Shown here in pieces: positions 1-24,748 of a DNA stretch of 64,000 nucleotides (position 1 is the first letter of the stretch; every line of letters begins with the position of its first letter). The DNA lies in assembly GCA_965223425.1 (NCBI GenBank), contig OZ245003.1, forward strand, positions 480,001 through 544,000, read 5' to 3'. The stretch is from Nitrosopumilus sp. (GTDB taxonomy: Archaea; Thermoproteota; Nitrososphaeria; Nitrososphaerales; Nitrosopumilaceae). The notes beneath the pieces were generated by a model. The model worked only from the letters and a program-made list of their open reading frames with translations. It was not told where the DNA came from and did no database searches. Made by a program: the position numbers and the translations under genes.

Positions 1-101
1 GACCCTCACGAAAATGTTTTACGTGTATAATTTAGTCTTTTACAAAAATTTTTTGTTATGACAGAAACTTTTAATCTGGCATTTTAATTCAAAGTATTTG
101 T

Positions 102-179
102 GCCCTTGTAGTATAGCCCGGTCTAGAATTCGGCCCTGTCACGGCTGAGACGCGTGTTCAAATCCCGCCGAGGGCGCCA
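102..179 (+). tRNA. tRNA-Asp(GTC), CCA encoded; integration target
   Basis: Acceptor GCCCTTG/CGAGGGC, anticodon arm CGGCC-CTGTCAC-GGCTG, T-loop TTCAAAT, ends G-CCA. Confidence 0.96.
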
Positions 180-181
180 TC
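163..181 (+). repeat. att site (tRNA-proximal copy)
   Basis: 3' end of tRNA-Asp, identical to 24730-24748. Confidence 0.92.
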
Positions 182-245
182 CTTTTCAAGCCGGCTCCCT
201 GCACAAAAAATTACCACTTTAAATGCAGATGGAGCTTCAAGACTG

Positions 246-1541
246 TTGCATCAAAAAAATCATAGTGCATCCTCTAGGAAACAAACCAGGGACGATGACA
301 TCCACAACTATGCCGGCAAGATAAGGCGGTTAAGACGAAAGCTCCCAGAGACAAGGCAGGGAGATCTGGCAGTCAGGTTCCTTGAAAAGCTAAAGGTGTC
401 GGGGCTAAAAGACGGAAGAGTGTGCTACTATGGCGACAGGCTGACCCTTATACTGAAATTATTTAACGGACATCCCGACGGGCCGGTCATGCTGGAAGCA
501 GCAGAAAAGCACCACTGCGAGTCAGTGCTCTCACAAATAATATCCAACGATGAATATGGGGGCGAGACCAAAAAGGCGTATGCACTTGCCCTGATGCGCT
601 TTGTTAACTATGCAAAGACCGGTGACGTGGGGTGCCGGGAGGACGGGTATGCAGGGGAGGTATCCTGGATTAGGCCGTCAAAGTATCTCGACAAAAACGA
701 CGTTACCGTCAAGTCAGAGGATCTGCTCACCGCAGACGAGATAACTGCGCTTTTGGGTGCAATATCTAACAAGCGCGACCGGGCCATGTACTGGGTGCTC
801 TTCGAGGGGGCGTTTAGGACGGGTGAGCTCCTAAAGTTCAGAATCGGGGGAGTGGACTTTAGGGACGACCATGTCGTGGTGACCACCCATGGCGGCAAGA
901 CGGGTTCGAAGAGAATACCACTGGTGCTCTCGTTCCGACCGCTACTGGAGTGGCTTGCAGAGCATCCAAACAGAAACAATCCGGACGCATTCCTTTGGTG
1001 CTCTGATGCCCCCCAAAACAAGGCCGGAAGGATTTCATACAGTTATCTGAGACGGCACCTCAAGCAATACGCCGAGAAGGCAGGAATCAAAAAGAGGATA
1101 TGGATATACCTGATGCGGCACACGCAGCTTACACAGCTTGCCAAAAAGCTCTCAGACCAGACACTCCGGGCGTACGGCAACTGGAGTCCAAGCTCCAACA
1201 TGGCGCGCAAGTACGTCCATCTCTCCGGCAAGGACATGGATGAGGCAATACTGGGGATGCATGGAATAAGATCCAAAAATGATACGAGCGGGTCGGTCAG
1301 ACTAGAGTCCTGCCCGCGATGTGACAACAAGGACACCCCTGACTCCCAGCGGTGCTCCAAGTGCGGATACATTCTGGATCGGAAGCTCCTCCCCGATGAG
1401 GCCAAGACGTACATGGAGATGGCAGACGAGATGAGGGCTGGCCTGGACCGGATAGGGGCCCTTGAGGACAAGATAGACCTGCTGTTTGCAAGACTTCTTA
1501 CTGGGGATCCCGTGGCGCCCCGGCAGCAAGACGCTCCCTGA
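246..1541 (+). CDS. Tyrosine recombinase/integrase with C-terminal Zn ribbon
   Basis: FRTGEL (R), GKTG (K), YLMRH, GNWS, KYVH (Tyr); CPRC..CSKC; immediately downstream of the att/tRNA; not split by att. Confidence 0.93.
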   Translation: MHQKNHSASSRKQTRDDDIHNYAGKIRRLRRKLPETRQGDLAVRFLEKLKVSGLKDGRVCYYGDRLTLILKLFNGHPDGPVMLEAAEKHHCESVLSQIISNDEYGGETKKAYALALMRFVNYAKTGDVGCREDGYAGEVSWIRPSKYLDKNDVTVKSEDLLTADEITALLGAISNKRDRAMYWVLFEGAFRTGELLKFRIGGVDFRDDHVVVTTHGGKTGSKRIPLVLSFRPLLEWLAEHPNRNNPDAFLWCSDAPQNKAGRISYSYLRRHLKQYAEKAGIKKRIWIYLMRHTQLTQLAKKLSDQTLRAYGNWSPSSNMARKYVHLSGKDMDEAILGMHGIRSKNDTSGSVRLESCPRCDNKDTPDSQRCSKCGYILDRKLLPDEAKTYMEMADEMRAGLDRIGALEDKIDLLFARLLTGDPVAPRQQDAP

Positions 1542-1745
1542 GTCTTGCGACCTCGCGTCTGTACTCTAAAATGGCCTGCCGGAGCTGCTCCAAGGTGCTT
1601 TTTGAGACTTGGATGTATTCTTCCATGCATGATAATTGGGAGTTCCTTAAAAGAGGTCAATCCAGGTCTGAATCAAATATGCATCCGTCTTCAAAAACCG
1701 CGAATTTGGCAGTCGGCAGTTGACTAGGCTCCTGGCAACAGTAAT

Positions 1746-2636
1746 ATGGATCGTATACCGTACATTACAGTACTTATGTTCAAAACCGGTAACCTGCACA
1801 AGTCCAGCAGAATACTCTTGAACAAGATAATTGGCGTGATAGAAGAATACGAGGAGATGGGTTACATGCTAACCGTACGACAGATCTACTACCAGCTGGT
1901 AAGCCGTCTCATAGTCAAGAACATCAACAGCATGTACCAGCGCACCAGCAAGCTCGTCACTATTGGACGGATGCTCGGCGAGATAGACTGGGATTCAATA
2001 GTGGACAGAGCTCGGACGCCGAGGATGCCCGGCCAGTACGACAGCATGGCAAAGTTTGTCGACGCAGTCAAAAACTCGTACCGCAAGTACAGGTGGAGCG
2101 ACCAAGACCACTATGTCGAGGTCATAGTCGAAAAGGACGCGCTGGCCGGAATCTTGGAGCCCGTAACCCGCAAGTATCATGTATCGCTGCTTGCCAACAA
2201 GGGGTACTCCTCTGCTAGTGCCATACACGAGCTGGCAATGAGGATGAATTACCAGAACATAAAGGACAAAGAATGCCACATCCTGTACCTCGGGGATCAC
2301 GACCCCAGCGGGATTGACATGGTGCGCGACATCAAAGATAGGCTTGCCCACTTTGAGTGCTTTCCGGAGATGGAGAGGATTGCCCTCACCATGGATCAGA
2401 TAAAGGAGTACAAACCCCCGCCAAACCCGGCCAAGATATCCGATCCACGATCAGACAAGTACCGACAGCTGTACGGCAATGAATCGTGGGAGCTTGATGC
2501 CCTCGATCCCAAGGCGCTCGTCGACCTTGTAGAGTACAACATCACAAAATACCTGGACGTGGACAAGTACAACAGGATCATACAGTTGGAGCAAGAAGAG
2601 AGGGATCATCTGGATGCCGCTGTAGCCCGCATGTAA
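1746..2636 (+). CDS. Spo11/Topo VI-A-like TOPRIM protein (Mini-A type)
   Basis: TVRQIYYQLV (winged helix with candidate catalytic Tyr), VEKDAL and YLGDHDPSG (TOPRIM E and DxD), WELDAL; start may be 1776. Confidence 0.75.
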   Translation: MDRIPYITVLMFKTGNLHKSSRILLNKIIGVIEEYEEMGYMLTVRQIYYQLVSRLIVKNINSMYQRTSKLVTIGRMLGEIDWDSIVDRARTPRMPGQYDSMAKFVDAVKNSYRKYRWSDQDHYVEVIVEKDALAGILEPVTRKYHVSLLANKGYSSASAIHELAMRMNYQNIKDKECHILYLGDHDPSGIDMVRDIKDRLAHFECFPEMERIALTMDQIKEYKPPPNPAKISDPRSDKYRQLYGNESWELDALDPKALVDLVEYNITKYLDVDKYNRIIQLEQEERDHLDAAVARM

Positions 2637-2668
2637 TTTGGCCTTAAATTAAAACCGATATTATACTA

Positions 2669-3502
2669 TTGATGCTGAAAATTGGACTGGATATAGGGAC
2701 GGGTTTTGTAAAGTGCGTTTCAAACAACGGCTCTGTCAGATTCCCATCAATCTATGTCAAGAGAACACATGGTGATTGGACGGGTACCGTCACCGAGGCA
2801 GTAGGCGAAAAGGCGGCAAGGATGCTTGACAGTACAGGTGCTGCCACGGTACGCCCCATCATCCGGGGCAGGCCGGATCCCCGATATCAAAAACAGGTAG
2901 AGATGCTCATCCGGGAATCCGTCTCGCGCATACGCACTTTGGCAGGCCGTAGCGCGGACTGTGACGATACGATACGTATTGCCGTGGGACTGCCATACGA
3001 GGCGTCTGACTATCGCGAGACCATATCGAAAATGGTCAAAAAGACAACCGGTGCAGAGCGATGCGATGTGGTAGCCCAGGCAGTCGGCACCCTGGTTGAT
3101 GCAGGCAAGGTCAGCGGCATGGTCGTCTCCATAGGTCAGGGAACAAGCGAGATCATAGTCATTGACGACAACCACGTAATAGACGGCGAGAGTTCCAGAT
3201 GGGCCTCAGAATTCATCACCCGCAAGATCTCAAAGTTTGCCCACCTGGATCCAAATCTTTTGCTTGCACGCAAAGACACGTGTAAAAAATACGCAAAGGT
3301 GCTGGCAGAAAATCTGGCAACAGAGATTATAGACATGGCATCAGGATACGGCAACGCATATGATCTTGTGCTGTCCGGCGGCGGTCTGCTGATACCGGGA
3401 GTCCGAGACGAGCTTGAATCCAGACTCAAAAAATTCAAGGTCGTAATACCGGATGATCCCGTCATGAGCAACGCAACGGGTCTCTACAAACTCGTCGAAT
3501 AA
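2669..3502 (+). CDS. ParM/StbA-family actin-like ATPase
   Basis: Phosphate-1 IGLDIGTGFVK, FPS motif, phosphate-2 SIGQGTSE, adenosine LSGGG, C-terminal DPVMSNATG. Confidence 0.85.
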   Translation: MMLKIGLDIGTGFVKCVSNNGSVRFPSIYVKRTHGDWTGTVTEAVGEKAARMLDSTGAATVRPIIRGRPDPRYQKQVEMLIRESVSRIRTLAGRSADCDDTIRIAVGLPYEASDYRETISKMVKKTTGAERCDVVAQAVGTLVDAGKVSGMVVSIGQGTSEIIVIDDNHVIDGESSRWASEFITRKISKFAHLDPNLLLARKDTCKKYAKVLAENLATEIIDMASGYGNAYDLVLSGGGLLIPGVRDELESRLKKFKVVIPDDPVMSNATGLYKLVE

Positions 3503-3523
3503 TTTTTTTTTTTGCCAAAAAAA
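3503..3523 (+). terminator. T-tract terminator after actin gene
   Basis: 11 consecutive T right after the stop codon, followed by a complementary A-run. Confidence 0.5.
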
Positions 3524-3554
3524 GTGCCTTAAATATTATTCAAATATTGCAGAC

Positions 3555-6500
3555 ATGGGATCAAAGCGATGGCACCTTGCCAACAAGAAAAAGCCTGCAG
3601 GACAGCTGGGAGAGGCAAAGCACTTTCTGGCAGCCCCTGAAAAACTGGCTGCCTGCTCGATTACGGTTCCAATAGAGATGGACAAAAAGGCGGCCATTAA
3701 TGCTGCAGGCGGTCTTACCAGTGCAGGCATACGCAGTTTTGAGATATGGTGGGACGCCTCTGAAAAGAGACTAGAGCTGGTTTTGGTGGCAGAGAAAAGC
3801 GATCTTGCCACCTACAGGCAGGCATTTTTGAACATGTATCCAAATGCGGTATTTACCGAGCTGGAGAGTACGGAACCCGGGTGGTTTGAGCGCGAGTCCG
3901 AATACCAGATATTTGACGTGGGCACGCACCATGGACACTATTCTGCAGTATTTGATCAGGCCCGAGCCCACCAGCTGATAACCCAGGTGGCAAACACCAT
4001 CCAGCTATCCAGACAGGCCTGGATACAGTTTGTATTCAAACAGCACTCGTTTGCCCCTTTTTTGAGAAGACATGTCACGCGCCTTGATGCCAAGATTCAC
4101 GAGATCAAGCGCGGCAGGTATCTTAGCAATACCGAGATTATAATGAACCCCGACAAAAAGCCCCACGAGCACCACGAGCTTGGATACGACCTTACAAACA
4201 ACTATTCCGGCCTGCAAAAACATGCGACCCTCAAGATGCAGTCGGCCCAGCTGTTGATGAGCATCAGGGGAATTGTAAAAAGCGAGCGGGACTTGGACTT
4301 GAACTTTGATGAGATAGAGGCTCTTCCCGTAGAAAACATACACTCAGGCCACGAACATCTGACTAAATTTCGATACAAGAATAAGAATTTCTGGGACGGC
4401 GAGCCCAAAAAGACTGCCGTCAAAGTGGCAGGCAGCAAGGAAAAGCCTCCCAGGATTGGAATCTTTGAGGGCAGGCTTTTACCTGATCCCGTCAAATTTC
4501 AGGACCGTGCCATTGGCAGATATTTTGACAAGGGAATGCTCGGATACAGGGAACGCGAACCCATGCCATTTCTCATACTAAACCAGTCCGAAATTCCGCT
4601 GTTTATCCACCTGCCAGAACCCGTCACACCAAACATAGACACGACCAGGGGTGTCACCATTCCCTCAAAGCCGTCAATCAAAGACGGCTCTTGTCTTGGA
4701 TTCTTTCGACCCAAAGAGGATGGCTTTGAGTGGAAAAAGATGTGGGGAAAGATTGCCAGATCCAAGGACGTGGATGCGGCAGTCATATCTACTGCAGACC
4801 TTGCCACCCACATCTATGCCGTGGGTGCGTCAGGTTCCGGCAAGACATCCCTCATCCGGGTACTCTCAAAACATCTTGAGATTTGGAACGACTCTGATGA
4901 GTTCAAAAACGCCTTCATATATGTAGACCCCAAGGGGGATGACTCTCACAAGTTCGTAAGACAGTGTGAAAAAGAATCACTGTCCAGCGGACGCATACAT
5001 TTTCTTGATCCCCAAAAGACCCGCTTTTCGATAAACCCGCTGGAGCTGCCGACCCACTCGCCCTGGGAGAGAGAGGAGGTAGTCTCCAGATATGTCGGAT
5101 ACTTTATGAAAACCATAGAGGAATGGTACCAACAGTCGGCAAGCTATGTCCAGATGGAGAGGATATTCCGGGCACTGTTATTTTACATCTACATGAAGCA
5201 TGATGCCCCCACATTTCTTGACATTCACGATATAATCCTACGGTTACAGGAAAACGGCGTCAGGGCCATGCCGCATATCATCCAGACGTTTGGTACGCCA
5301 GAGCCAGAGATGAAGCAGGCCCTGACAAGTATTGCCACTCTAAAGGGCGAGGCATTCATACCATTACTTAACAGGGTGGAGCAGTTTGCCACAGACCCGG
5401 TTCTCAGGCGCATGTTCTCTGTGAGACACGGAACAGTCGACTTTGGAGAGATAATCAAGCCCGGTCACCAGTCCATAGTCAGGATATCGCCACTTAACAT
5501 GCCCCAGCACGTCCAGCCGCTTGCCATGCAGGCCTTTATCCTGAAACTGTGGTTTACCATACAAGAGCGGGCCAACCGGGTACCAGACGAGGCAGAACGC
5601 ACACAGGTGGTTCTGGCACTAGACGAGTTCCAGATAGTAAAGGATCTCCAGGTGCTACAGCTTATGTTGGAGCAGGCAAGGTCGCTTGGTCTCGGACTGG
5701 TACTGTCTCATCAGACCACCGAGCAGATAAGTGACAAACAGCTTGGAATAATATCGGGCAACTCTGGCACACAGCTTATCGGCAAGGTAAACGGCAAGGA
5801 CGCCTCCAGAATTGCCCAGATATGGGATCCCCAGTTTCAAAAGGAACTACAGCAGCAGTTTGCCAGCCAGGAATACTTTCACTGGACTATACGGGAAAAG
5901 GCGCCCCCTGGAAAGGAGCAGCCACCCCCCGTACAGTTCTGGCTGGCCAGACCGCCGGAGCTGACCATCGATGACCACACCTATGACGAGTTTGTCAGGG
6001 CGCAGCTGGCACGGTATGGTTCCGGGTCAATAGAGCCAAACACCATAACCCAGGCCGCAAAGAAAAGGACCCAGTGGATTGAGAATATAGAGGTAGAGTT
6101 TCCAACAAAGATAGAGTGGGATATAATGCGCCTGCTCGAAGGCGGGGAGATGAGACAGGCCCAGATTGTCTCGGCCCTACACGTACAGAACCGCGACGAG
6201 GTCGCCCCCGTCCTCAAAGAGATGGAGGAGCAGGGAAGAATAGAAAGAATTGATGCCGGGCGCACATCACCGTACCAGTTGACGGCCAAGACCCAGGCAG
6301 CATATTTTGAGTTTGATCATACACAGATAGGTACCGCCCAGGACATACCCGAGGTGGCAAGAAAGGCCATCGAGGCATATCTTGCGGAGGGACTGTTTGT
6401 CGCCATGGCGTCCCAGAGGATCAAAAAAGGCAGGGACAGAACAGACCTGATAGCCTATGATTATTCAAGAGATGTGCCCATCAGCGTTGAGATAGAGTCA

Positions 6501-6674
6501 GTCAGCGAGGTGCAGAGTCATCAGGAGCACGTCAGGTACAACATGACAAAATGGCCCAAGATGGGATTCTCAGAGTGCCATGTATGGTCCAAGAGCCAGA
6601 AAATAAGGCAGATCTGGGCAGGACTGGATGAAGAGGAGAAAAAAAGAATCTCACCCATCGTCATTTCATCCTGA
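3555..6674 (+). CDS. VirD4/TraG-HerA-type ATPase with C-terminal winged helix and PD-(D/E)XK-like domain
   Basis: Walker A GASGSGKT, YVDPKGD, SINPLE, Walker B LALDEFQ, EQARSLG, SHQTTEQ; C-terminal TDLIAY..VEIES. Confidence 0.8.
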   Translation: MGSKRWHLANKKKPAGQLGEAKHFLAAPEKLAACSITVPIEMDKKAAINAAGGLTSAGIRSFEIWWDASEKRLELVLVAEKSDLATYRQAFLNMYPNAVFTELESTEPGWFERESEYQIFDVGTHHGHYSAVFDQARAHQLITQVANTIQLSRQAWIQFVFKQHSFAPFLRRHVTRLDAKIHEIKRGRYLSNTEIIMNPDKKPHEHHELGYDLTNNYSGLQKHATLKMQSAQLLMSIRGIVKSERDLDLNFDEIEALPVENIHSGHEHLTKFRYKNKNFWDGEPKKTAVKVAGSKEKPPRIGIFEGRLLPDPVKFQDRAIGRYFDKGMLGYREREPMPFLILNQSEIPLFIHLPEPVTPNIDTTRGVTIPSKPSIKDGSCLGFFRPKEDGFEWKKMWGKIARSKDVDAAVISTADLATHIYAVGASGSGKTSLIRVLSKHLEIWNDSDEFKNAFIYVDPKGDDSHKFVRQCEKESLSSGRIHFLDPQKTRFSINPLELPTHSPWEREEVVSRYVGYFMKTIEEWYQQSASYVQMERIFRALLFYIYMKHDAPTFLDIHDIILRLQENGVRAMPHIIQTFGTPEPEMKQALTSIATLKGEAFIPLLNRVEQFATDPVLRRMFSVRHGTVDFGEIIKPGHQSIVRISPLNMPQHVQPLAMQAFILKLWFTIQERANRVPDEAERTQVVLALDEFQIVKDLQVLQLMLEQARSLGLGLVLSHQTTEQISDKQLGIISGNSGTQLIGKVNGKDASRIAQIWDPQFQKELQQQFASQEYFHWTIREKAPPGKEQPPPVQFWLARPPELTIDDHTYDEFVRAQLARYGSGSIEPNTITQAAKKRTQWIENIEVEFPTKIEWDIMRLLEGGEMRQAQIVSALHVQNRDEVAPVLKEMEEQGRIERIDAGRTSPYQLTAKTQAAYFEFDHTQIGTAQDIPEVARKAIEAYLAEGLFVAMASQRIKKGRDRTDLIAYDYSRDVPISVEIESVSEVQSHQEHVRYNMTKWPKMGFSECHVWSKSQKIRQIWAGLDEEEKKRISPIVISS

Positions 6675-6969
6675 GCTTTTCAAGCTGGCTTTTGTTTTCC
6701 GGTTCTTTTTTCCCTAGAGCCTCTGCTAGTTCCCCGCGATATCCCGGTTCTTCTCCGTCCAGGACGGTCGAGTCTCGGTCTGCATCTGTCAGATCCTTTT
6801 TTGTAATGTTGGACTCTGTCGGCTTTATGATGATTTTGTTTTTTGATATGGCAAACCGGACGTACTGGTTTTTTCGTATGCCCAGAGCATGGACTATTTG
6901 TAGCGGGATGGTCACAGTATATGAGCCCTGGCGGAATTGTATCTTTCTCTGTATGTCTTCTAGTTCCAT
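6661..6969 (-). CDS. AbrB/MazE/SpoVT-fold DNA-binding protein with charged C-terminal tail
   Basis: RKIQFRQGSYTVTIPLQIVHALGIRKNQYVRF..IIIKP pattern; ATG 6969 lies ~25 bp from a TTATAT box; the longer ORF call reads through a repeat array. Confidence 0.8.
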   Translation of the reverse strand: MELEDIQRKIQFRQGSYTVTIPLQIVHALGIRKNQYVRFAISKNKIIIKPTESNITKKDLTDADRDSTVLDGEEPGYRGELAEALGKKEPENKSQLEKLRMK

Positions 6970-7004
6970 GATTGGAAATACCTGGATGCATATAAGGGCA
7001 AAAA

Positions 7005-7169
7005 ATGCATGATGTGTACTGCCAGAATGCATGATGTGTACTGGCATGTTTTTTGGATGCATGATCTGCATGAGGGAGATGCAGAATATGCATATTGGGC
7101 AATTTTCACCATGCAGGATATGCATTGTTATGATGCAGAATATGCATATGGGTCATGCATGGTATGCAT
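7005..7169. repeat. Array of seven 15-bp pseudo-palindromes ATGCA-N5-TGCAT (operator/centromere-like)
   Basis: Units start at 7005, 7027, 7057, 7079, 7111, 7133, 7155 (first two end TGTAC). Confidence 0.85.
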
Positions 7170-7403
7170 TTGGTATCATCTTCGGTATGGCAGCCACGCT
7201 TGAATTAACCGTCTGAACGCTTTGCATTTACCTCACAAAAACGAACAACGAACTTGTTTTGATGATTCATTCAAAGGTTCTTTTCTTCCGAGACTCTTGA
7301 CAGAGTCCCTCTCCCACCAGCACGAGGTTTTTTGGAAAAAACCTCTCAAGACCCAACATCCCAATCGAGCCGTGACCGGCTCGATTACTCGCACCAAAAT
7401 TAC

Positions 7404-7499
7404 ATGATTCAGGGGGCTCAAATTAATTACAATAATAGTATGATCAAAGGGGGGCTCAAATTATAATTCTCATATATGATCAAAGAGGGGCTTGTATTA
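7404..7499 (+). repeat. Three iteron-like repeats ATGAT(C/T)..AG(G/A)GGGGCT..ATTA with 36-bp period
   Basis: Copies start 7404, 7440, 7476, separated by AT-rich spacers. Confidence 0.7.
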
Positions 7500-7924
7500 T
7501 TTTTTTAAATTATTTTGTGGCAGGAGATCAATTGAGTGGTATTTTTGACACCGGTTCTGGTAAATTCCTGTGATCTGATCACTAAAATCTACCAGATCCA
7601 AATTTGAGGTGTATTTAAAGCCCCTGAAAAATCCCAGAGTTCCCCGTTAGCGGTTAGTTACCTGTAATGTGGAAACTTTGCCCATTGGCATGTTGATCGT
7701 CATTTGATTCTCTGTCTGACTCTAGGCATGACTTTTGTAGACTTTGTAGACTTTGAGCCACATCTGTCTGACTCTTGGCTACTTTGTCTACTTGGACTCT
7801 CCTGTCCTTTTTCATTGCCTCTAGACCTCTTAACGTAGTCCTTGTACCAATTCACATACGATTCTTAACGGAACCCAACAGCATATGACTAAAACTTGAA
7901 AAGTATTACCAACCACCTAATGAT

Positions 7925-8056
7925 ATGGACAGGGAGGGAACCAACAGACGAGTCGGCCCATGTGAGTCGTGTGGACATGAAAAATGGATCTATGACTTTG
8001 ACGATGATATAGAAGGGTATTGTACCATGTGTTATCGTGAGATCTATGAGAGTTAA
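7925..8056 (+). CDS. Small CxxC..CxxC zinc-finger protein (43 aa)
   Basis: Manual translation MDREGTNRRVGPCESCGHEKWIYDFDDDIEGYCTMCYREIYES. Confidence 0.5.
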   Translation: MDREGTNRRVGPCESCGHEKWIYDFDDDIEGYCTMCYREIYES

Positions 8057-8094
8057 TCCGGCCATCAAATGTGACCCATATGGAAGCACCCAAA

Positions 8095-8210
8095 TATTGA
8101 AAAAAATTCACTTAAATCACAAATGATTTTACTATGATATATTGGGCATGCCAGAGAGAAGTCAGATTACAAAGGGATCCCGTGTATTAATCGAGACAAA
8201 GGAGAACCAG
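8095..8210 (+). repeat. ~115-bp direct repeat copy 1 (promoter + first 21 codons of YwbE-Schlafen gene, truncated)
   Basis: Near-identical to 9803-9920; encodes MPERSQITKGSRVLIETKENQ then diverges. Confidence 0.9.
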
Positions 8211-8240
8211 TCCTTGATATTTCTACACAACAAAATCATT

Positions 8241-9740
8241 TTATGTTCTATCTTGTAGCAATTTCAACTTCCATTCTAGAAATTTTGGATCTAGCGGATA
8301 TTTCATATCGTGTCTTAGTCTTAATTCAGGAGTGACGTGACTAACCCACGACCTGACCTGATTGGTAGAGTTCTCACTGAGCAACTCTGATATTTCGACT
8401 CCAAAGTCTTGCTCTATGGTTATGAAGCCTTTTTCAAAGGCGACATCACACAATCTACATAGCAACAGTCCATTTTGTGGGTTCATGGAATTATATGGAT
8501 CTTTCCTTCTCATTATACGATATGGCACTATGTGTGCTCCGATCACATAGTCGTGAATCCCAAAGCCACACAGAGCACATTTTTCATAATCCTTTAACAG
8601 CTCGGCTCGAAACACTTCTTGTTTTTTCCTAACATATACCGTCCGCATCTCCCCGTTGGAGTAAAAGTTTCCCTTCCGTATCTCTTTTTCAACGTGGTCA
8701 TACACCTCATTATTCATAGCTATCTCATCAAGCCGCCATATTCCCACTCCTAATTTTTTGTCGCCTTTCTCGTCCCAATCAACCAAGATCTTCTTTTCTC
8801 TCAAGCGACTGATCTCATTTACCACCGCCTTGTAGAGTGGGTTTTTCGATTTGTCAGAACCATACAAAGAAACATCTATCCCAAGTTTGCTTGCCACCAG
8901 AGCATCAACTTCGGTTTTGGTATGCCATATGGACTCGTATTGTAATTCCTGATTGTCCGATCTGCCTTCAGCGTGCCTGTGCTCTTTTTCTTTTATGAGG
9001 GGCATGGTGCGTCCTTCACTAGTGAGGCATTCCCAAACGTGCATCCGGAGACCTGCATGGTCTATGGGAAGTTTAAGGGTGGCTGTACGAAGCACGTCAT
9101 AAAATGATCCATGTTTCTCCGATTCTATTCGTTCGACATCATCCTTGTTGAGTTTTTTGAGGAATCTTATCCATTCCTGCATCACCTTGATCATCATTGC
9201 TTTGTTATGATTTTTGAAAAACTTCATTGCATCCGGATTCAGGTCAATTCCTGCATTCAAATCTACGAATTTTCTATTCCTGTTGATCTCCCTACCAATT
9301 TCATACTTAAAGAATGCCCGTATCTCCGCCGTCTGTGGTATCTTAACCCTTTGGAATCTCCACGTCACATTATGGAAACATTTTTTTGCTATTTGCCTGA
9401 TGCATTTTTTAATTTTCTCAGGCTCTGATCTTTTAACATAGCTTAACGTATTGTTATAATACGAGTCATCGAATTGATCTTTTATTATGTTCATGATCTC
9501 CAGCGTTTGGCCTGCCTGTGGAATTTGTTTTATCTTCAACTTTGTCTGTGGCCAATAATATTTGAGAAAATATTCCGCAATGGTCAAATAATCCACATGT
9601 GTATCAGTATTGTCCCTACTGTAGTCTAGTAGAAATTTTGCAAATGCGAATTTGTAGGTATTGTCCTTGTTACTGTTGACTAGAATTTCTGATAAAATTC
9701 TCTCAAATTCCTTGGCTTGAAAAGTGTCAAAAACCAACAT
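8241..9740 (-). CDS. HNH endonuclease, putative restriction enzyme
   Basis: N-terminal NTYKFAFAKFLLD motif; C-terminal CALCG..GAHIVPY..NPQNGLLLCRLCD.AF. Confidence 0.8.
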   Translation of the reverse strand: MLVFDTFQAKEFERILSEILVNSNKDNTYKFAFAKFLLDYSRDNTDTHVDYLTIAEYFLKYYWPQTKLKIKQIPQAGQTLEIMNIIKDQFDDSYYNNTLSYVKRSEPEKIKKCIRQIAKKCFHNVTWRFQRVKIPQTAEIRAFFKYEIGREINRNRKFVDLNAGIDLNPDAMKFFKNHNKAMMIKVMQEWIRFLKKLNKDDVERIESEKHGSFYDVLRTATLKLPIDHAGLRMHVWECLTSEGRTMPLIKEKEHRHAEGRSDNQELQYESIWHTKTEVDALVASKLGIDVSLYGSDKSKNPLYKAVVNEISRLREKKILVDWDEKGDKKLGVGIWRLDEIAMNNEVYDHVEKEIRKGNFYSNGEMRTVYVRKKQEVFRAELLKDYEKCALCGFGIHDYVIGAHIVPYRIMRRKDPYNSMNPQNGLLLCRLCDVAFEKGFITIEQDFGVEISELLSENSTNQVRSWVSHVTPELRLRHDMKYPLDPKFLEWKLKLLQDRT

Positions 9741-9857
9741 TTTACTACCATATGCAATCGTAAATATGCTTTTTTAATGCAAATGCGATCTTCTGCTCTT
9801 CGTATTGAAAGAAAAATTCACTTAAATCACAAATGATTCCACTATGATATATTGGAC

Positions 9858-10616
9858 ATGCCAACTAGGAGCAGTATTACAAAGGGATCCCGTGTATTAA
9901 TCGAGACAAAGGAGAACCAGGGAACCGGTCGCCTCACAGAGGGCACAGTTAAAGAGATGTTGACTGCTGGCAACTCACACCCACACGGAATAAAGGTACG
10001 ACTTGATGATGGACAGGTTGGACGTGTCAAGCAGGTAACTGTAATGAAAGGAACTGTAAAACCACAATTTGTGGATCTGAGCAAAAAAGAGATCCCAAAA
10101 ACAGAAGACAAGTACAACGAATTCAAGGAATTCTACCAGTATGATGAAAAAATCGAAAGGCTATCAAGCGACAAGGAAAAATCTAACGCCATAGACGGCA
10201 TAAAGCACTCCGTACAAAAGAGATTTGCCATAGCTGTATGTTCCTTTGGAAATTCTCACAAAGGAGGTTTTGTATATTTGGGAATACGGTCAGATGGCTC
10301 GATAGCAGGATTAGATAGAGATAAAAAATTTGGCGGATTTTCAGACTATAATGACTCATTTGCAAATCATATCAAAGACAGACTAGAAGATTTCCTAAAG
10401 GATCGTGTATTCATTACAAGCAAGGTAGAGATGAGATTCCGAACCATTGACGATAAGACCATCTGTATAATTCAAGTACTTCCTGCAGACCGGCCCTTGT
10501 ATCTTAATGATAAAGAAAAGGCGTTCTTTGTAAGGGGGGCCTCACCTAGAGCAGAAAAGCTAGACGTCGAAGAACAGTTCAGATACATAAAAGAGAGATT
10601 TCCACATCATCACTGA
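9858..10616 (+). CDS. YwbE-like domain fused to Schlafen/AlbA_2 domain
   Basis: N-term TKENQGTGRLTEG.VKEMLT..SHPHGIKVRL.DGQVGRV (YwbE); C-term NEFKE..AVCSFGNS..GGFVYLGI..DG..FFVR (AlbA_2). Confidence 0.8.
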   Translation: MPTRSSITKGSRVLIETKENQGTGRLTEGTVKEMLTAGNSHPHGIKVRLDDGQVGRVKQVTVMKGTVKPQFVDLSKKEIPKTEDKYNEFKEFYQYDEKIERLSSDKEKSNAIDGIKHSVQKRFAIAVCSFGNSHKGGFVYLGIRSDGSIAGLDRDKKFGGFSDYNDSFANHIKDRLEDFLKDRVFITSKVEMRFRTIDDKTICIIQVLPADRPLYLNDKEKAFFVRGASPRAEKLDVEEQFRYIKERFPHHH

Positions 10617-10618
10617 TT

Positions 10619-11578
10619 ATGACTGATCTTTATCACAGCCCTCTGTTTGAGAATATTCGAGATTATCTCAGTAAGTGTGGCTCAGATGAGACCATTTTTC
10701 TCTTTGTACCGTATATCAAAACAAAGATTCTTGACAAGCTACTAGATGGCATACAAAACAGAATAGTCGTTGTTACTACTTGGAACCCAAAGGACATACA
10801 GTTTGGTTCTTCAGAGCTTGCCCTGTATCCGTATTGTAAGGAGCGAAATATTGCCCTGTATGTGAGTGAAAACATGCATCTCAAAGTATATTCCATTGGA
10901 CTGGAAAGTGCGATACTTGCTACGGGTAACATATCGCATAGGGGACTATTACCTGATGGAAACTATGAGGCTGCAACCGTGCTTGAACATCTAACCAATG
11001 ATGATAGATTATTCTTTGAAAAGATACGAAGAGAGGCAAGACTGGTAGATGATGCAATGTATGACGAGCTCAAAAAATGGAGTGAAGATAACCAGATAGA
11101 TCTACCAAAACAGGTTGCGTTGGAAGATATAATATCAAGTCCAAAAAAAGATGATTTTTTAATATCTGCCCTTCCAATGACGCGCAGTGTGGATGATCTT
11201 GTGTTGGGGTATAAGAGAATGTCTGCAGGACAAGTGCCGTCTGATGATTCAGAAATAACTGCGTGTATATTTCATGATCTAGCAAATTATGGCATTGCAG
11301 TGGGACTCTCAGAATCAGAGTTTATCCAAGAGCTGTCTGTCAAGTTTTTTGCACATCCATTCATCAAAAAGATTGACAAATTTATCTCTCCAGAAGCATA
11401 TTTTGGCAGAATCAAGGAATGGGTGCAGAACAACTGTACTGATGTGCCGGTGCCAAGCAGAAGGGAGCTGACCGGAAATGTACAGGTGTTGCTAGAATGG
11501 TTTGAGAAACTAGGAAATGGAAGATATCAGATTGATATTCCAGGCACAAGATCACAAAGGATTAGAAGACTATCATGA
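10619..11578 (+). CDS. Phospholipase-D-family (HKD-type) nuclease
   Basis: LFVPYIK, MHLKVYSIG, ILATGNISHRGL, GNYEA: single HxK motif as in BfiI/NgoFVII-type nucleases. Confidence 0.78.
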   Translation: MTDLYHSPLFENIRDYLSKCGSDETIFLFVPYIKTKILDKLLDGIQNRIVVVTTWNPKDIQFGSSELALYPYCKERNIALYVSENMHLKVYSIGLESAILATGNISHRGLLPDGNYEAATVLEHLTNDDRLFFEKIRREARLVDDAMYDELKKWSEDNQIDLPKQVALEDIISSPKKDDFLISALPMTRSVDDLVLGYKRMSAGQVPSDDSEITACIFHDLANYGIAVGLSESEFIQELSVKFFAHPFIKKIDKFISPEAYFGRIKEWVQNNCTDVPVPSRRELTGNVQVLLEWFEKLGNGRYQIDIPGTRSQRIRRLS

Positions 11579-11599
11579 TCAAAAGATGTTCATTGGAAA

Positions 11600-13219
11600 T
11601 TAGGGATTTGGATCATTATATCGCCATAGATCAGCAAAGTATTCGTCTGCAAGCTCTATTGATGGGAGTATGTCCAATATTCTAATAAGTTTAAACTGTT
11701 CTGTACCTCCCATACGTGGACCGCGCATTCCACGACCGATCATCTGTTGATGAAGTACAATTGATCTAGTTGGTCTTGCTATGAACACTACATCTATGTT
11801 GGGCGCATCAAATCCAACAGAAAAAACATTAACATTGCATATGCATTTTATTTTTCCTATTTTGAATTTTGATATTACATCACGTCTATATTCTATGGGA
11901 GTTTCACCATCAACATGTGCTGCATTTCCTCCTAATGCCAAAATTATGGCACACATTAATTTTGATTGTTTTATGTTTGGAGCAAAGTATAATATTTGAT
12001 TGTTATCTGCTATTAATTTTTTCAATCGCTCGGCAATTATAAAATTTCTTCTATTGTCATTAGCAATTTTATCTAATATTTCTAATGGAAGATCATGATC
12101 ATCTGCAAATTTTCTTCTTTGTTCTTGTGTTAAGATAAATTCTCTGTCGGATCTAATAGTTTCAGGTTCACAATATGCTAGATAACCCCTTGACTGGAGA
12201 TATGATATGTTATCCATATCACCTGAATCAATTTCTATTATTTCATCATTGAAATATTCCCTCAGTTTTTTATTTTCTGGATTTTCTACTCCCCTTATGG
12301 GAGTAGCGGTAAGACCAATTATTCTAGTGCCTTTTTCTTCTAAGTGTCGTATGACGTTTTTATGGGTGCGTGCTATAACATTATGTGCTTCATCAGCCAC
12401 CACCAATTCTGGTTGTGGGAAATTATTTGAATTTAACAAATTATTTAGTTTTTGATATGTAGCTACTATGAATGCATTGGGCTTAAAATTGTCTGGAATG
12501 TTTTTCCCCCATACTCGATATACATGTAAATCAGCCTTGCCCAAATGAGACCATATCTCTTTCATCGATATGATGGCCTGTTCACACAATTCTTCACGAT
12601 CAGCAAGCCAGACTACGTGTCTCTTTTTATTATCACCGATACCATTGTTTAAAAAATTACTCACTATCTCCAAAGCTGTTCGTGTTTTACCTGCACCCGT
12701 TGGCATTTTTATGATAAAACGCATCCATGGATTTTCTATCAATCTCATCGCATCATAGAAAATTTTACTTTGATATTCTTTCAGCATTAAAAGTGGTTTA
12801 TTAGACTGTATTACAAATTCAGTACTACGATCTTCTTCAATGTTTGGCACAAGGCTTTCATCGTATCCAAATTCTTCAATGAATGCTTGTGTCTCATCAT
12901 TATGTCCCCATGTTAGCTTTGAAGCTTTTTCAATTGAATTTTTGTACAATTCTTCATTTTGAGATGGAATTGATATGCCAACTCTGTGTAAAAATCTAAT
13001 GCATTTTTTTCTATCTGCATATCTCAAAAGTTTTAGACGAAATTCTGATTTTTTGTAGGACGATATATTTAACGCATGGTGAAGTTTTCCAAGAATCTCT
13101 TTTGTTTCTATGTCGAAATTTTCATCCGATGTTATTTTGTTGAGAATTAGGTTTAATGGATCCCAGTATTCACTTAGTGCAGTTTCTAATTCACTACGTG
13201 GTAGTTTATCATTTAACAT
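11600..13219 (-). CDS. SF2 DEAD/DEAH helicase (restriction-associated type)
   Basis: MPTGAGKT, VADEAH, GLTATP, GFDAPNID, QMIGRGMRG. Confidence 0.92.
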   Translation of the reverse strand: MLNDKLPRSELETALSEYWDPLNLILNKITSDENFDIETKEILGKLHHALNISSYKKSEFRLKLLRYADRKKCIRFLHRVGISIPSQNEELYKNSIEKASKLTWGHNDETQAFIEEFGYDESLVPNIEEDRSTEFVIQSNKPLLMLKEYQSKIFYDAMRLIENPWMRFIIKMPTGAGKTRTALEIVSNFLNNGIGDNKKRHVVWLADREELCEQAIISMKEIWSHLGKADLHVYRVWGKNIPDNFKPNAFIVATYQKLNNLLNSNNFPQPELVVADEAHNVIARTHKNVIRHLEEKGTRIIGLTATPIRGVENPENKKLREYFNDEIIEIDSGDMDNISYLQSRGYLAYCEPETIRSDREFILTQEQRRKFADDHDLPLEILDKIANDNRRNFIIAERLKKLIADNNQILYFAPNIKQSKLMCAIILALGGNAAHVDGETPIEYRRDVISKFKIGKIKCICNVNVFSVGFDAPNIDVVFIARPTRSIVLHQQMIGRGMRGPRMGGTEQFKLIRILDILPSIELADEYFADLWRYNDPNP

Positions 13220-13229
13220 CTATTACATC

Positions 13230-14969
13230 CTAATTTTTGTATGATTTTCTTAAGTGATAGCTCCACTTTACAAGGTGTTCTTCTACAGTGGTTCCAACAG
13301 ACTGTGTCCTAATCAAGTCATCAAGATCGTACTGACCTTCGGCATATGCATAGATGAGTCTGTCTATGTCATTTTTGAGTTCTTGAGCAAGTTTCTTAAG
13401 TTCAGAATTTTGTGGATCAGCAGATATAGATTCTATATCTTTGATCCTTCTATATACTTCAACAAAGAATGGATGACTCATGTTATAATGAACTACTTTT
13501 TTGCCTACGTCGTCTAATACGTCAATGAACGGACCATCTGAGCGAGCCTTGTGATCGTGTATAATTTTGTACGTTGTATCTGTGTCTGTCACTTCTTTTA
13601 CATAGTCTTCCTGTTCTTTTTTATTATCAAAGAGTTCTTCTGCGTGTTTTTGTGCGTTTTCTCTATTCTCGCCTTTAGAAGCAGATGTGGGTAACGGTGG
13701 GCTAATGCCTGTAAGAGTTACTTCTATGCCAGTATGGCTTTTCAACGATCCGGTTTCAGATTCGCTCTTTTTTTGATCTTCATCATTCCAGTCTTCTTCT
13801 ATGTCTTTCCTGAACTTGTTGATTATTGAGGGTTGAATCTTTTTCTGTAATATGTCTCTTAATTCTTTGAGGGGTCTAGCACCAATTTTTATGTTCTTCA
13901 CAGAAAACCAGTGATCAAGAATTGGTTCAAAATCAATCTCACACCCCCAAAACCTATCGACAGGTTTTAGTGCTGGTGAGAATCTAGATATTGGGCCATA
14001 ATAGACTTCCCGTCCATTTCTCAATATAGAAAATCCTTCATTTTCATGTACTTTTCTTTCAATACTGTATTTGCTTCTTCCACCATAGCCTTTCAAGTGA
14101 GCGTTTTTCTGTCCCTTTCTCAAAGATCTGGGAAGGATGGATGTTCTAATTGTTATCTTGCCTTTTCTTTCACCACTACTGGGAGCGTCTACATCATGCG
14201 TCTGATGCTCAAACACATGCTCGTCTTGAAGTGTTGCACGTTCATCTGTTGGAAATTTGGGATTTTTTGTAGCATACAAAGGATCATGTGATGTAACTAA
14301 TTCGTTATTTACTCCATCATCAATGAATATTTTTCTCACATTGTCATTTTTTGTGACTTTACCATCTTTGATTATCTCTTCGCCTATGAATTTACGATAT
14401 ATTCTGCCAAGACGATGTTTGAGCTCATCGAGATCGAATTCTGTATCAATTCGTTCAATTTTACTCCAGATTACTAATGTGCCATGATCTCCTACCAGAT
14501 CTTTATATTTGTCTGGGAGATTTTTTGATTCTCTAGGATGTAGGAATGGTTCTACATCATTATCTATTCCACTATTGTCTAAAAACGTGTAGTGCCAATT
14601 TCCCTGTTTTTGTCTAGAATATACCTCGATTTTATCACATACGTTGATTGCCCCCATAGTCATTCCAACTCCAAATCGGCCTATTCCTTTTCGATCATCA
14701 TATCTATCAGAGTAACCGATAACTAGACAATTCTGGAGTTTATCAGGATTCATTCCATATCCATCGTCTCCAAATGCTATGGTTACAGGACGAGGTTTTT
14801 GTTTGCGTGGAGGCGTATTCATCTCGAATTTAATCTTGATTTCTTTTGATTCTGCTTGAATCGAATTATCTACTACTTCATAGATAGCCGAGTAAGCATC
14901 AAAGTCATTATTGCGAAGAGATTTCAGAGCCGCACCTATGAGTATGGGTGATATGCCTTCTGCGCTCAT
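13230..14969 (-). CDS. GHKL/MORC-family ATPase
   Basis: EVVDNSIQA, DDGYGM, GIGRFGVGM, HGTLVIW. Confidence 0.9.
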   Translation of the reverse strand: MSAEGISPILIGAALKSLRNNDFDAYSAIYEVVDNSIQAESKEIKIKFEMNTPPRKQKPRPVTIAFGDDGYGMNPDKLQNCLVIGYSDRYDDRKGIGRFGVGMTMGAINVCDKIEVYSRQKQGNWHYTFLDNSGIDNDVEPFLHPRESKNLPDKYKDLVGDHGTLVIWSKIERIDTEFDLDELKHRLGRIYRKFIGEEIIKDGKVTKNDNVRKIFIDDGVNNELVTSHDPLYATKNPKFPTDERATLQDEHVFEHQTHDVDAPSSGERKGKITIRTSILPRSLRKGQKNAHLKGYGGRSKYSIERKVHENEGFSILRNGREVYYGPISRFSPALKPVDRFWGCEIDFEPILDHWFSVKNIKIGARPLKELRDILQKKIQPSIINKFRKDIEEDWNDEDQKKSESETGSLKSHTGIEVTLTGISPPLPTSASKGENRENAQKHAEELFDNKKEQEDYVKEVTDTDTTYKIIHDHKARSDGPFIDVLDDVGKKVVHYNMSHPFFVEVYRRIKDIESISADPQNSELKKLAQELKNDIDRLIYAYAEGQYDLDDLIRTQSVGTTVEEHLVKWSYHLRKSYKN

Positions 14970-14999
14970 TCTCTAATCTGCCATGTGCCCTTTTTTAAA

Positions 15000-15872
15000 T
15001 TATAGGTGGCAGACGGTACACGGGGTTTTCTCATCATCATCATCTAACACATCTGCCAAAACATCAACCAATGGCAAATTCTTTCTTTTTGACTTTGCTT
15101 TTTTGAGCTTTTCTTCATGCTTTTTCATTATGTCATCTCGTCTTTCCAACAGCTCTGTTAGGGTCTCTCCCTCAGACCATGTGTATTGTCTGCCTTTCAT
15201 ACCGCTTGATTTGAAATCAGCGTCTCCTGCAACACCTGCATCTTTAAGTATCTTTTGCTCTATTGCAACTGCGCGTTTGAACAAATCAGGATGATTGTCT
15301 GCAAGACCAACCCACTCTGCTTTGCGTTGAAAGAAGCAAAAATAACAACCAGAGCGTGTCCTCCACTTGTAATAATCAGGCAGGTTGATTCCTGCATCTT
15401 CTAGTATCTTTATGACACCGGTGTGATCAATGTCATCATCGATGAATGGAAATATTGTCTTGATATTTGGCTTGGTGGATACATACCCGGTTCTGCTTTT
15501 TTCATCAGAGCGAATTGCCACGTATGATGTTACTTCAGCGTCTCCAATCCAGTCCTCAAGTGGCTTTATCTTCAACATACTAGTACACCACCTCATCTGT
15601 GGAGATGGAAGTGTACCACGAAATACCTCAAAATAATGATCAAAACTTCGAGTAGAGTTTAGTTTTATGATTTTTTTGCCTAGGACGACTTCAAGCTTTG
15701 CAAGATAAGCATAGGTCTCTGGCAGTTCTGCACCTGTATCGCAGAAAAAATACTCCATGTCTGGAACTTTATCTCGCATGTATACAGCAAGGGCACTAGA
15801 ATCTTTACCTCCAGATATTCCGCAAACGTGTCTTGGCAATAACAATTGAAAAGATTCTAAGAATATAATCAT
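15000..15872 (-). CDS. sspD: PAPS-reductase-family phosphorothioation protein (SspD-like)
   Basis: PP-loop SGGKDS, DTGAE, RWCT..LKI.P, RSGCYFCFFQ, terminal CTVCHL; context with DUF4007, ATPase and desulfurase; start may be TTG 15839. Confidence 0.78.
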   Translation of the reverse strand: MIIFLESFQLLLPRHVCGISGGKDSSALAVYMRDKVPDMEYFFCDTGAELPETYAYLAKLEVVLGKKIIKLNSTRSFDHYFEVFRGTLPSPQMRWCTSMLKIKPLEDWIGDAEVTSYVAIRSDEKSRTGYVSTKPNIKTIFPFIDDDIDHTGVIKILEDAGINLPDYYKWRTRSGCYFCFFQRKAEWVGLADNHPDLFKRAVAIEQKILKDAGVAGDADFKSSGMKGRQYTWSEGETLTELLERRDDIMKKHEEKLKKAKSKRKNLPLVDVLADVLDDDDEKTPCTVCHL

Positions 15873-16035
15873 TATTATCTAAATTCCAAATAAAAGGTAG
15901 ATCCGGCGTGGAATTTCGGAGTTGCAAGCATGGTGCCTAAAACTCTCAGATGGGTATTATTCACGTCTAAATTTAGTCTTGAGAAAAGTTATCGAACATA
16001 CCATATTGAAGACAAACCTTTAAACTTGAAAATAG

Positions 16036-17817: not shown

Positions 17818-18157
17818 TCATGTGATCATTTTATCTTAGATGCTAGCTCATCAAATTCTTTTTTGGAGACTGTCAGACAGAACAGTACTTTGTTGGGTTT
17901 TTTTGCATTTTTTATCATAGGGTAGAATTTTATGGTGTACATGTTGTCCTTTTTTATAATCTCGTATGGCCTCTCGCCTATCTTATTTCGCACTTGATGT
18001 CTTAACTGGCATGTGATTTTATAGTTTTACAATAGACAGGCGAATTCGGCCTTGAATATTATTATACTAGTTTATCGTACTATAACTTACCGTATCCGAA
18101 ACCTCTGGACTATCCGATAAAGATGGGGAATCGGGGGCATGATTGTGGATACGGCTT

Positions 18158-18721: not shown

Positions 18722-18724
18722 GTT

Positions 18725-24729: not shown

Positions 24730-24748
24730 TCCCGCCGAGGGCGCCATC
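24730..24748 (+). repeat. att site (distal copy)
   Basis: Exact copy of 163-181. Confidence 0.92.

Follow-up and report, generated by a model that had tools for sequence, protein, structure and literature searches.

How does a small archaeal integrative element that carries an actin-like gene, with no ParR-like gene beside it, keep hold of its DNA? This question is raised by a 64,000-nt stretch of the genome of an ammonia-oxidising archaeon, a Nitrosopumilus sp. (GCA_965223425.1, contig OZ245003.1, positions 480,001 to 544,000; hereafter the window), near the start of which lies a 7.4-kb block of five genes, encoding an integrase, a Toprim-like protein, an actin-like ATPase, a 1039-aa ATPase and, on the opposite strand, a small AbrB-fold protein (Table 1). 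An earlier note on this DNA had proposed an actin-driven segrosome with an AbrB-fold adaptor. Our analysis leads us to favour, with confidence a little short of even, the reading that AbrB on a phased repeat array would form a DNA handle coupling the element to its nucleoside triphosphatases (NTPases), with partition by the actin as the most likely function. To our knowledge, no actin-driven segregation system of a plasmid or episome has been characterised in archaea, and literature searches found neither an AbrB-fold centromere-binding protein nor an actin/ATPase/AbrB module. A survey of thaumarchaeal integrated elements (PMC6563490) mentions none of actin, MreB and AbrB in its main text; its supplementary tables may list them.

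A phased repeat array precedes an AbrB/MazE-fold gene

Five exact copies of ATGCANNNNNTGCAT start at 7057, 7079, 7111, 7133 and 7155, with one other copy in the 64 kb (47598), and two further units with two mismatches each (ATGCA-N5-TGTAC, at 7005 and 7027) form a 21-nt direct repeat. Allowing up to one mismatch, 15 unit matches were found against 4.97 expected, a number reached in none of 100 shuffles; with up to two mismatches, 11 units were observed, compared with a mean of 0.16 and a maximum of 3 in the shuffled array region. The seven unit starts share one helical phase (Rayleigh test, R = 0.92 at a 10.7-bp period, p ~0.003), placing them on one helix face, and the array starts 8 bp upstream of the promoter-like box of the AbrB gene. 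A CCTTA(A/T)AT box stands ~20 nt before the start codon of the actin, ATPase and AbrB genes alike, which implies leaderless transcripts. Furthermore, an ATGCAT half-site (6986-6991) overlaps the downstream end of the AbrB box and sits between this box and the start codon.

The AbrB gene product was matched by PF04014 (MazE/AbrB/SpoVT) slightly below the cut-off of 24.7 bits (23.9 bits, E = 3.9e-5), PF04014 matched 16 of 20 aligned relatives (best 6e-10), and the profile of the family matched the solved MazE structure (PDB 1ub4) at 1e-5, indicating that the protein has the swapped-hairpin DNA-binding domain of the AbrB/MazE/SpoVT superfamily. A MazEF-type pairing was not seen: the operon holds no toxin gene, and the only neighbour is the convergent ATPase gene, none being co-directional. 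The earlier note had thus correctly described the seven units, their spacings of 22, 30, 22, 32, 22 and 22 bp, their common DNA face, their place directly upstream of the AbrB promoter and the small AbrB-fold gene whose product ends in QLEKLRMK.

We fetched and compared 111 loci, sorted here into class A (a sister actin subfamily, L073 and L103-L107), class B (the window type: actin, ATPase and convergent AbrB), class C (an ATPase 45-55% identical, with AbrB and without actin) and class D (more distant actins, ~37% identical to that of the window). All counts come from one archaeal family, the Nitrosopumilaceae, and do not represent independent events. The arrays of relatives lie in the same place, with other unit sequences, recurring periods of 22/32/54, 33, 44 or 55 bp and a length of 3 to 12 units. 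Self-matches of 6-mers exceeded every shuffle in 15 of 17 class B loci, with leading periods of 22/54, 31-33, 44, 53-55 or 63 bp; the exceptions were L036 and L038, the latter containing 100 masked N. At lag 22, the array of L034 gave 40 self-matches, whereas no shuffle exceeded 5.

Counts of 5-9 for ATGCA-N5-TGCAT with up to one mismatch are confined to loci whose AbrB N-domain shares at least 73% identity with that of the window (the window itself, L036, L034 and L035); ELB, a paralogous element in the window's own genome, has three such units, and 15 other loci have none. L034 has the array motif of the window though the winged helix-turn-helix (wHTH) region of its ATPase shares only 51% identity, a level also seen in loci whose arrays are unrelated. 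The motif therefore tracks the AbrB N-domain and not the wHTH, which points to AbrB as the reader of the array; the wHTH region, considered as a candidate reader, was ruled out by L034. A comparison of shared array 7-mers with the identity of five protein regions was non-discriminating, rho being 0.32-0.37 for all alike.

The C-terminal tail of AbrB is conserved

In the alignment of 20 AbrB sequences, P22 is the sole invariant column, M1, L96 and L99 are nearly invariant, and overall identity falls to 15-40% while the LxxLxΦ tail, which in the window ends the protein as ...KSQLEKLRMK, stays conserved. The tail is the most conserved part outside the DNA-binding fold. The last 14 nt of the AbrB gene overlap the end of the convergent ATPase gene, and the codons of L96-K98 lie outside this overlap. 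Because these tail residues are outside the ATPase open reading frame (ORF) and the C-termini of the ATPases vary among relatives, the constraint belongs to AbrB itself.

Since an AbrB-tail gene accompanies the ATPase without actin in 8 of 10 loci, the tail cannot depend on window-type actin, and no single partner can be assigned, because LxxLxΦ occurs in classes A, B and C. The partner may differ between classes (the actin in some, the ATPase in the rest), may be both NTPases, or may be shared by all classes, as with self-association or a host factor. A three-chain complex prediction (actin, ATPase 400-1039 and, as partner, AbrB 58-102) gave scores of 0.50, 0.57 and 0.42, compared with 0.00 and 0.00 when the partner was replaced and 0.65 when the ATPase fragment was swapped for an unrelated protein, and was not used for or against binding. 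A PCNA- or ESCRT (MIM1)-like motif was considered for the tail, but the apparent resemblance is weak.

The module encodes an actin-like ATPase and a VirB4/VirD4/HerA-like ATPase

The actin-like protein matched PF06723 with 51.9 bits against a cut-off of 27, and its AlphaFold2 model has a predicted local distance difference test (pLDDT) score of 93.4. Structural comparison gave tied VIA Z values of 26-23.5 for BeeR, MreB, the chromosomal ParM Dh-cParM1, actin, crenactin and Ta0583, with R1 ParM at 21.3 and AlfA, whose solved chain has 267 residues, at 18.6. The model thus indicates that the 277-aa product has a real filament-type actin fold. The earlier note had called it ParM-type. This designation is not established: the NCBIfam ParM model PRK13917 scored 19.1 bits against a cut-off of 417, the protein fails every curated ParM/StbA family threshold, and its best models are MreB-type. 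Among PHROGs, the nearest family is 'partition protein' (5.5e-14), and a 38%-identical relative carries the name 'ParM/StbA family protein' in one source. The statement that no ParR-like gene adjoins the actin held, as the actin gene ends 52 bp from the next gene, leaving no room for a small ParR-like gene, and no small adaptor-like gene was found in the actin-ATPase gaps of window-type loci.

The 1039-aa ATPase between actin and AbrB, overlooked in the earlier note, consists of an N-domain (1-400), an FtsK/HerA/VirB4/VirD4-type motor (~405-800), a variable wHTH (~800-950) and a conserved C-terminal domain with a D...ExE motif, in which D964, E981, H989 and K999 are invariant in the conservation profile. 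It matched PF10412 (23.9 bits, cut-off 20.5), DUF7343, TraG-D_C and the NCBIfam VirD4-like family CD1115 (1.3e-6). Its model (pLDDT 84.8) was matched in Foldseek by TrwK/VirB4, HerA and TrwB (E 1e-13 to 1e-10) and by DndH-C. These data indicate that the protein has a P-loop translocase motor of the conjugation-ATPase fold within the FtsK-HerA superfamily. The wHTH (800-950) is its most variable part, 36-50% identical compared with 88-98% in the motor. A search of PDB sequences gave no match to the ATPase; in the Protein Atlas, the N-domain resembles DUF8128 clusters (score 0.92, a lead only), and the C-terminal part gave nothing usable (best 0.76).

Actin, ATPase and AbrB genes are linked in related elements

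Actin was found in 42 of 401 genomes of the taxonomic class, in one family only and often in multiple copies, a tally in which two unpublished genomes, G132 and G327, are counted; the ATPase was found in 62 of the 401. Besides ELB (actin 60%, ATPase 70% and AbrB 33% identical), the genome of the window contains a decayed, actin-less copy (ELC), a remnant (ELD) and a distant actin (ELE). One IS-type transposase gene (copies at G000:C1 ~892832-894127, 1900655-1901809 and 2466684-2467697) flanks or interrupts ELB, ELC and ELD, and in ELC it occupies the expected array site.

For class B, 24 close-actin loci were compared (22 fetched ones, the window and ELB), and in 21 of them, including 19 of those fetched, the ATPase adjoins the actin; L046 stops at a contig end, and L052 and L055 are without ATPase. 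A convergent AbrB ORF with an LxxLxΦ(K) tail is present in all 17 close-actin loci that have the ATPase 3' end. The ATPase is no less tightly linked to AbrB than the actin and belongs to the module rather than being a bystander, and on this sequence evidence AbrB appears to be a modular DNA adaptor linked to both NTPases.

In class A, a PF04014 gene lies tail-to-tail directly after the actin in 6 of 6 loci, with tails such as ISLADLQY, VSLAELQY, LESQFEV, LESRFE and QSFENWD, and in four of these loci the DNA fetched showed no ATPase. The elements have small backbones: L103-L105 adjoin a tRNA, L103 and L104 have an integrase, and the backbone gene is Mini-A-like in L103 and L105 and TFIIB-like in L104 and L106. 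A 304-324-aa protein is encoded directly upstream of the actin in L103 (4150-5100), L104 (1803-2717) and L106 (6236-7210); its N-terminus shows the AbrB-like motif SSFI(I/V)S(L/F)P and its C-terminus is acidic. On the L104 copy, the only one scanned, Pfam gave no match.

Among loci selected by the ATPase, none of 20 has an actin, and the ten most distant have no AbrB gene. The tails of class C are NPL-type in six of eight (NPLKDLDL, NPLKNLKF, NPLDEVF and NPLDGHEF), and some actin-less relatives have, by eye, a prepilin-peptidase-like gene and a TFIIB-like gene nearby. Several solo AbrB-tail genes, with arrays, occur in L096, L097 and L098 (genome G250), and some of them adjoin only the last 40-80 codons of an ATPase; in G250 the AbrB gene seems to outlive the remainder of the element.

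In class D (L056-L070 and an own-genome locus, G000:C1:1692161-1693015), a small protein starting with MLSKTERxF and ending in varying tails (..SKFENW, ..NSDWGT, ..ILDMNKMA) is encoded downstream of the actin and is a candidate adaptor of another fold. L056 and L058 have three CTCCTTAAGCC repeats ~33 bp apart behind its gene.

A conserved box and hairpins lie beyond the array

Beyond the array, a conserved non-coding box occurs in relatives of both ATPase clades, with TTCGCA(T/A)T(T/A)TAC kept down to 45% ATPase identity. In an alignment of this region from the window, L036, L094, L034, L035, L037, L053, L054, L049 and L042, the hairpin stems vary in sequence yet remain complementary; five of the seven pairs of hairpin 1 have changed on both sides, and 93.5% of cells are paired compared with 33-57% when the alignment is slid. 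In an Rfam search of window 1-9000 (E <= 1), the tRNA alone was matched, and the box and hairpin region fell in no known RNA family. Possible identities for the region are a structured RNA and a DNA hairpin belonging to an origin or transfer site.

Proposed mechanism and alternative explanations

We propose that the neighbouring AbrB/MazE-fold protein has the phased array as its cognate site. In each 15-bp unit, two inverted half-sites would stand one helical turn apart, with units two or three turns apart, and AbrB dimers or tetramers could coat one face of ~165 bp to build a large nucleoprotein complex. By reaching the half-site in its own leaderless promoter, AbrB would also regulate itself. 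The complex, adjoining the conserved box and hairpins, would serve as the cis-acting 'handle' of the 7.4-kb integrative element, and the C-terminal LxxLxΦ(K) helix would couple this DNA to the NTPases. The actin-like filament former would then most likely act as in ParMRC, segregating the episome once excised, and the ATPase-wHTH protein of VirB4/VirD4/HerA-like type, encoded tail-to-tail with AbrB, may translocate or process DNA at the neighbouring box, making a three-protein rather than a two-protein variant of an actin-based segrosome. We favour this reading because of the minimal class A elements, the architecture of the array and the finding, from the ORF list and family scans, of no other partition or adaptor gene candidate in the five-gene element. 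The tail-to-tail actin and AbrB genes of class A are what an actin/adaptor pair would look like.

Several observations weigh against partition by the actin. The actin gene has its own promoter and lies 3.2 kb from AbrB, and the counts share a single archaeal family. Long phased arrays occur only where actin and ATPase are both present; the actin-only loci of class A have 2-4 sites, not above shuffles, and the ATPase-only loci of class C have short 9-bp tandems or no array. A convergent AbrB-tail gene with the LxxLxΦ pattern stands in 8 of 10 closer ATPase loci with no detectable actin, and five of those genomes gave no actin match anywhere with the window actin as query. In 12 of 16 class D loci, the gene overlapping the actin downstream encodes a 93-105-aa protein of another family, and neither an AbrB-tail gene nor the ATPase was found in this class. 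Phasing of 22 bp is typical of replication iterons too, and the solo AbrB-tail genes beside ATPase remnants in G250 fit a repressor or immunity role. The segrosome of the earlier note is accordingly upheld in part: the array, the conserved tail and the linkage speak for it, but it left out the ATPase, and AbrB occurs without actin. The co-occurrence of actin, AbrB and phased array that it led one to look for is seen for all 17 class B loci, and for AbrB in all six of class A, but not in the 8 of 10 actin-less loci; likewise, no class B locus among the 17 keeps actin without AbrB, whereas the 12 distant actin loci have the other gene instead.

AbrB might instead be only an autoregulated repressor or immunity regulator, with the array as its extended operator, the actin and ATPase acting independently, and the tail serving oligomerisation or binding a host factor. 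AbrB/MazE-fold proteins are typical autoregulators, a half-site lies between the promoter box and the AbrB start codon, solo AbrB-tail genes and arrays persist beside the decayed ATPase remnants of L096-L098, and the tail pattern is found with actin alone, with ATPase alone and with both, where a partner common to all three could be neither NTPase. Yet 7-12 phased sites over 150-250 bp far exceed the need of a promoter, an NTPase gene remains the tail-to-tail neighbour in three gene orders and at protein identities as low as 30-41%, and the tail is conserved more than the AbrB body, and we consider such a plain operator rather unlikely. It is somewhat less probable still that the array and AbrB form an accessory-protein site beside a processing or loading site for the ATPase (the box and hairpins), comparable to oriT with TraM-TraD or TrwA-TrwB, or to clt with TraB in Streptomyces, with the actin as an unrelated add-on. 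In both ATPase clades, the AbrB and ATPase genes overlap at their ends, the cis region is located at the ATPase 3' end, the box persists to the ATPase divergence given above and one hairpin covaries, and the ATPase folds like conjugation ATPases in an element without a relaxase; in its main text, PMC6563490 reports thaumarchaeal integrative and conjugative elements (ICEs) with VirB4/VirD4 homologues and without a relaxase. Against this, actin and AbrB are retained in class A elements that lack the ATPase, the 7.4-kb element has no other type IV secretion system (T4SS) genes, the ATPase has no evident membrane segment by eye, and the ten most distant ATPase loci are without an AbrB gene.

Least probable, and in our judgement quite improbable, is a replication origin with the repeats as iterons, AbrB as the origin binder and the A/T-rich box and hairpins as the site of unwinding or priming. 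The 22-bp phasing of 15-21-bp repeats beside an A-rich conserved box would suit an iteron origin, and scans with Pfam, NCBIfam and PHROGs found no recognisable replication initiator in the element, so one of its five proteins must serve or recruit replication. However, no AbrB-fold initiator is known to us, the array has no Rep, primase or MCM gene as a neighbour, and the array length ranges widely.

Returning to the DNA handle with partition by the actin, a wider proposal is that Nitrosopumilaceae elements carry an undescribed actin-based segregation machine with an AbrB/MazE-fold adaptor that binds the centromere and docks through its C-terminal LxxLxΦ helix, in a minimal form (actin and AbrB) and an extended form (a VirB4/HerA-like translocase-wHTH-nuclease inserted between the two, and the centromere enlarged to a long helically phased array); this we put forward tentatively and regard as doubtful. 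If true, partition would in the extended form be tied to the translocation or processing of DNA, and the system would be the first archaeal actin-type partition system with the first AbrB-fold centromere-binding protein. The module is small (~5 kb, with three proteins and one DNA site) and is conserved in many genomes, among which array, tail and gene order vary naturally, and it is therefore directly rebuildable in vitro. If the actin reading fails, the module would still offer a conjugation-type ATPase that has DNA-binding and nuclease-like domains joined to it and a DNA adaptor of its own, which bears on how archaeal integrative elements lacking a relaxase move or maintain DNA.

The 7.4-kb element and its surroundings

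The 3' end of the tRNA-Asp gene (163-181) is repeated at 24730-24748 as a 19-bp exact direct repeat. The guanine-plus-cytosine (GC) content of the block is ~50% up to near 7500, compared with 33-42% in the DNA beyond (~7-19 kb). Contigs of sequencing run X4 match window 150-7544 at ~99% and then diverge into unlike DNA, which marks the 7.4-kb block as a discrete unit that was mobile recently. No joint of an excised circle was found among the sequencing-run data compared with the window (all contigs), and the five ORFs include neither T4SS components nor a relaxase. The 296-aa Toprim-like protein, presumably Mini-A-like, gave no match in Pfam or PDB sequence searches. It recurs in window-type and class A backbones at 37-65% identity and is, besides the C-terminal domain of the 1039-aa ATPase, the sole candidate for a DNA-cleaving replication protein.

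A low-GC island (7552-24748), bounded by the 7.4-kb element and the 19-bp tRNA-Asp copy, is rich in defence-type genes. Its genes resemble a DNA phosphorothioation (Dnd-like) system together with restriction, and the island is probably another element that used the same att site, outside the actin/AbrB module. About 45 nt within 7552-7600 show very high contig depth in three metagenome runs, with flanks that differ on both sides, which suggests a sequence common to many abundant relatives or elements. Farther on, an open frame of more than 2747 aa (55759-63999, GC 53-58%) runs off the end of the window.

Table 1. Features of the 7.4-kb element and the adjoining low-GC island (window coordinates)
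Feature	Position	Strand	Basis or remark
tRNA-Asp(GTC), integration target	102-179	+	ARAGORN, Rfam
Tyrosine integrase, 431 aa	246-1541	+	PF00589, 7e-17
Toprim/topoisomerase-like protein, 296 aa	1746-2636	+	phrog_6247 'DNA topoisomerase', 2e-91
Promoter-like box CCTTAAAT, actin gene	2642-2649	+	Read from sequence; nearly same spacing to start as in AbrB gene
Actin-like ATPase, 277 aa (ATG at 2672)	2669-3502	+	PF06723 6.5e-14, ALP_N 5.7e-5
Promoter-like box CCTTAAAT, ATPase gene	3527-3534	+	Read from sequence; 20 nt before ATG 3555
VirB4/VirD4/HerA-like ATPase, 1039 aa	3555-6674	+	Pfam, NCBIfam, model, Foldseek, conservation
AbrB/MazE-fold protein, 102 aa, acidic linker, C-terminal helix LEKLRMK	6661-6969	-	Pfam, alignment, profile
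Promoter-like box CCTTATAT, AbrB gene	6990-6997	-	Read from sequence; 20 nt before ATG
Array of seven 15-bp units ATGCA-N5-TGCAT (first two ATGCA-N5-TGTAC)	7005-7169	.	Spacings 22/30/22/32/22/22
Conserved non-coding box GCATTTACCTCAC...AAACGAAC (in the alignment with relatives GCATTTACC..AAACGAAC)	7224-7257	+	
Hairpin 1	7290-7309	+	Compensatory changes across relatives
Further hairpins	7324-7345 and 7363-7386		
Repeats GGGGGCTCAAATTA / TATGATCAAAGGGGGGCTCAAATTAT, common to ELB	7412-7500	+	
Right end of 7.4-kb mobile unit, approximate	7544-7552		GC ~0.50 to 0.41; run X4 contig matches
HNH_2	8241-9740		Low-GC island
DUF2196 + Schlafen AlbA_2	9852-10616		Low-GC island
PLD-like	10619-11578		Low-GC island
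ResIII/DEAD helicase	11600-13219		Low-GC island
HATPase_c_3	13230-14969		Low-GC island
PAPS-reductase domain	15000-15872		Low-GC island
GmrSD	16036-17817		Low-GC island
P-loop protein, 1114 aa	18725-22069		Low-GC island
DUF4007	22066-23019		Low-GC island
Class-V aminotransferase/cysteine-desulfurase type	23019-24194		Low-GC island

Comparison with known systems

Like ParMRC of plasmid R1 and AlfA/AlfB-parN of B. subtilis pLS32, the module combines an actin-fold NTPase, which in AlfA is likewise small, with a small DNA-binding protein that has a repeat array at its own promoter, in a mobile-element context and with a C-terminal peptide as the expected contact to the motor. Different from ParMRC, the adaptor would be of the AbrB/MazE fold rather than ribbon-helix-helix, and its gene is convergent, with the 3.1-kb ATPase gene in between, instead of lying in one operon; in class A the adaptor gene is adjacent to the actin but convergent as well. 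Moreover, the actin is below any ParM family threshold, and the adaptor family also occurs without an actin.

The module resembles TraM-TraD, TrwA-TrwB and TraB-clt of Streptomyces in its VirD4/FtsK-type ATPase, in an expected protein contact through a terminal tail, and in a small protein on repeated sites or repeats at the 3' end of the ATPase gene. In contrast to these systems, the tail is on the small protein, the ATPase carries a fused wHTH and nuclease-like domain, there is no relaxase or other T4SS gene and an actin gene belongs to the module. With MazE/AbrB antitoxins and transition-state regulators, the AbrB protein shares the predicted swapped-hairpin fold palindromic sites at its own promoter and an acidic, flexible C-terminal half ending in a putative partner-binding motif. 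Unlike them, it has no toxin in its operon, an array far longer than an operator and a convergent NTPase neighbour.

SrpMRC of SXT/R391 ICEs, as described in PMC4489591, is likewise an actin-type partition system of an integrating element, for its excised form, but it is bacterial, belongs to a large ICE with a full conjugation apparatus and uses a ParM/ParR-type pair. Finally, the module would share with SegAB, AspA-ParB-ParA of pNOB8 and HpaAB of Haloferax (the last according to PMC13722703) a role in archaeal segregation and a site-specific DNA-binding adaptor. Different from the actin and the AbrB-fold protein described here, these archaeal systems employ Walker-type ParA ATPases with ribbon-helix-helix, PadR-like or ParB adaptors.

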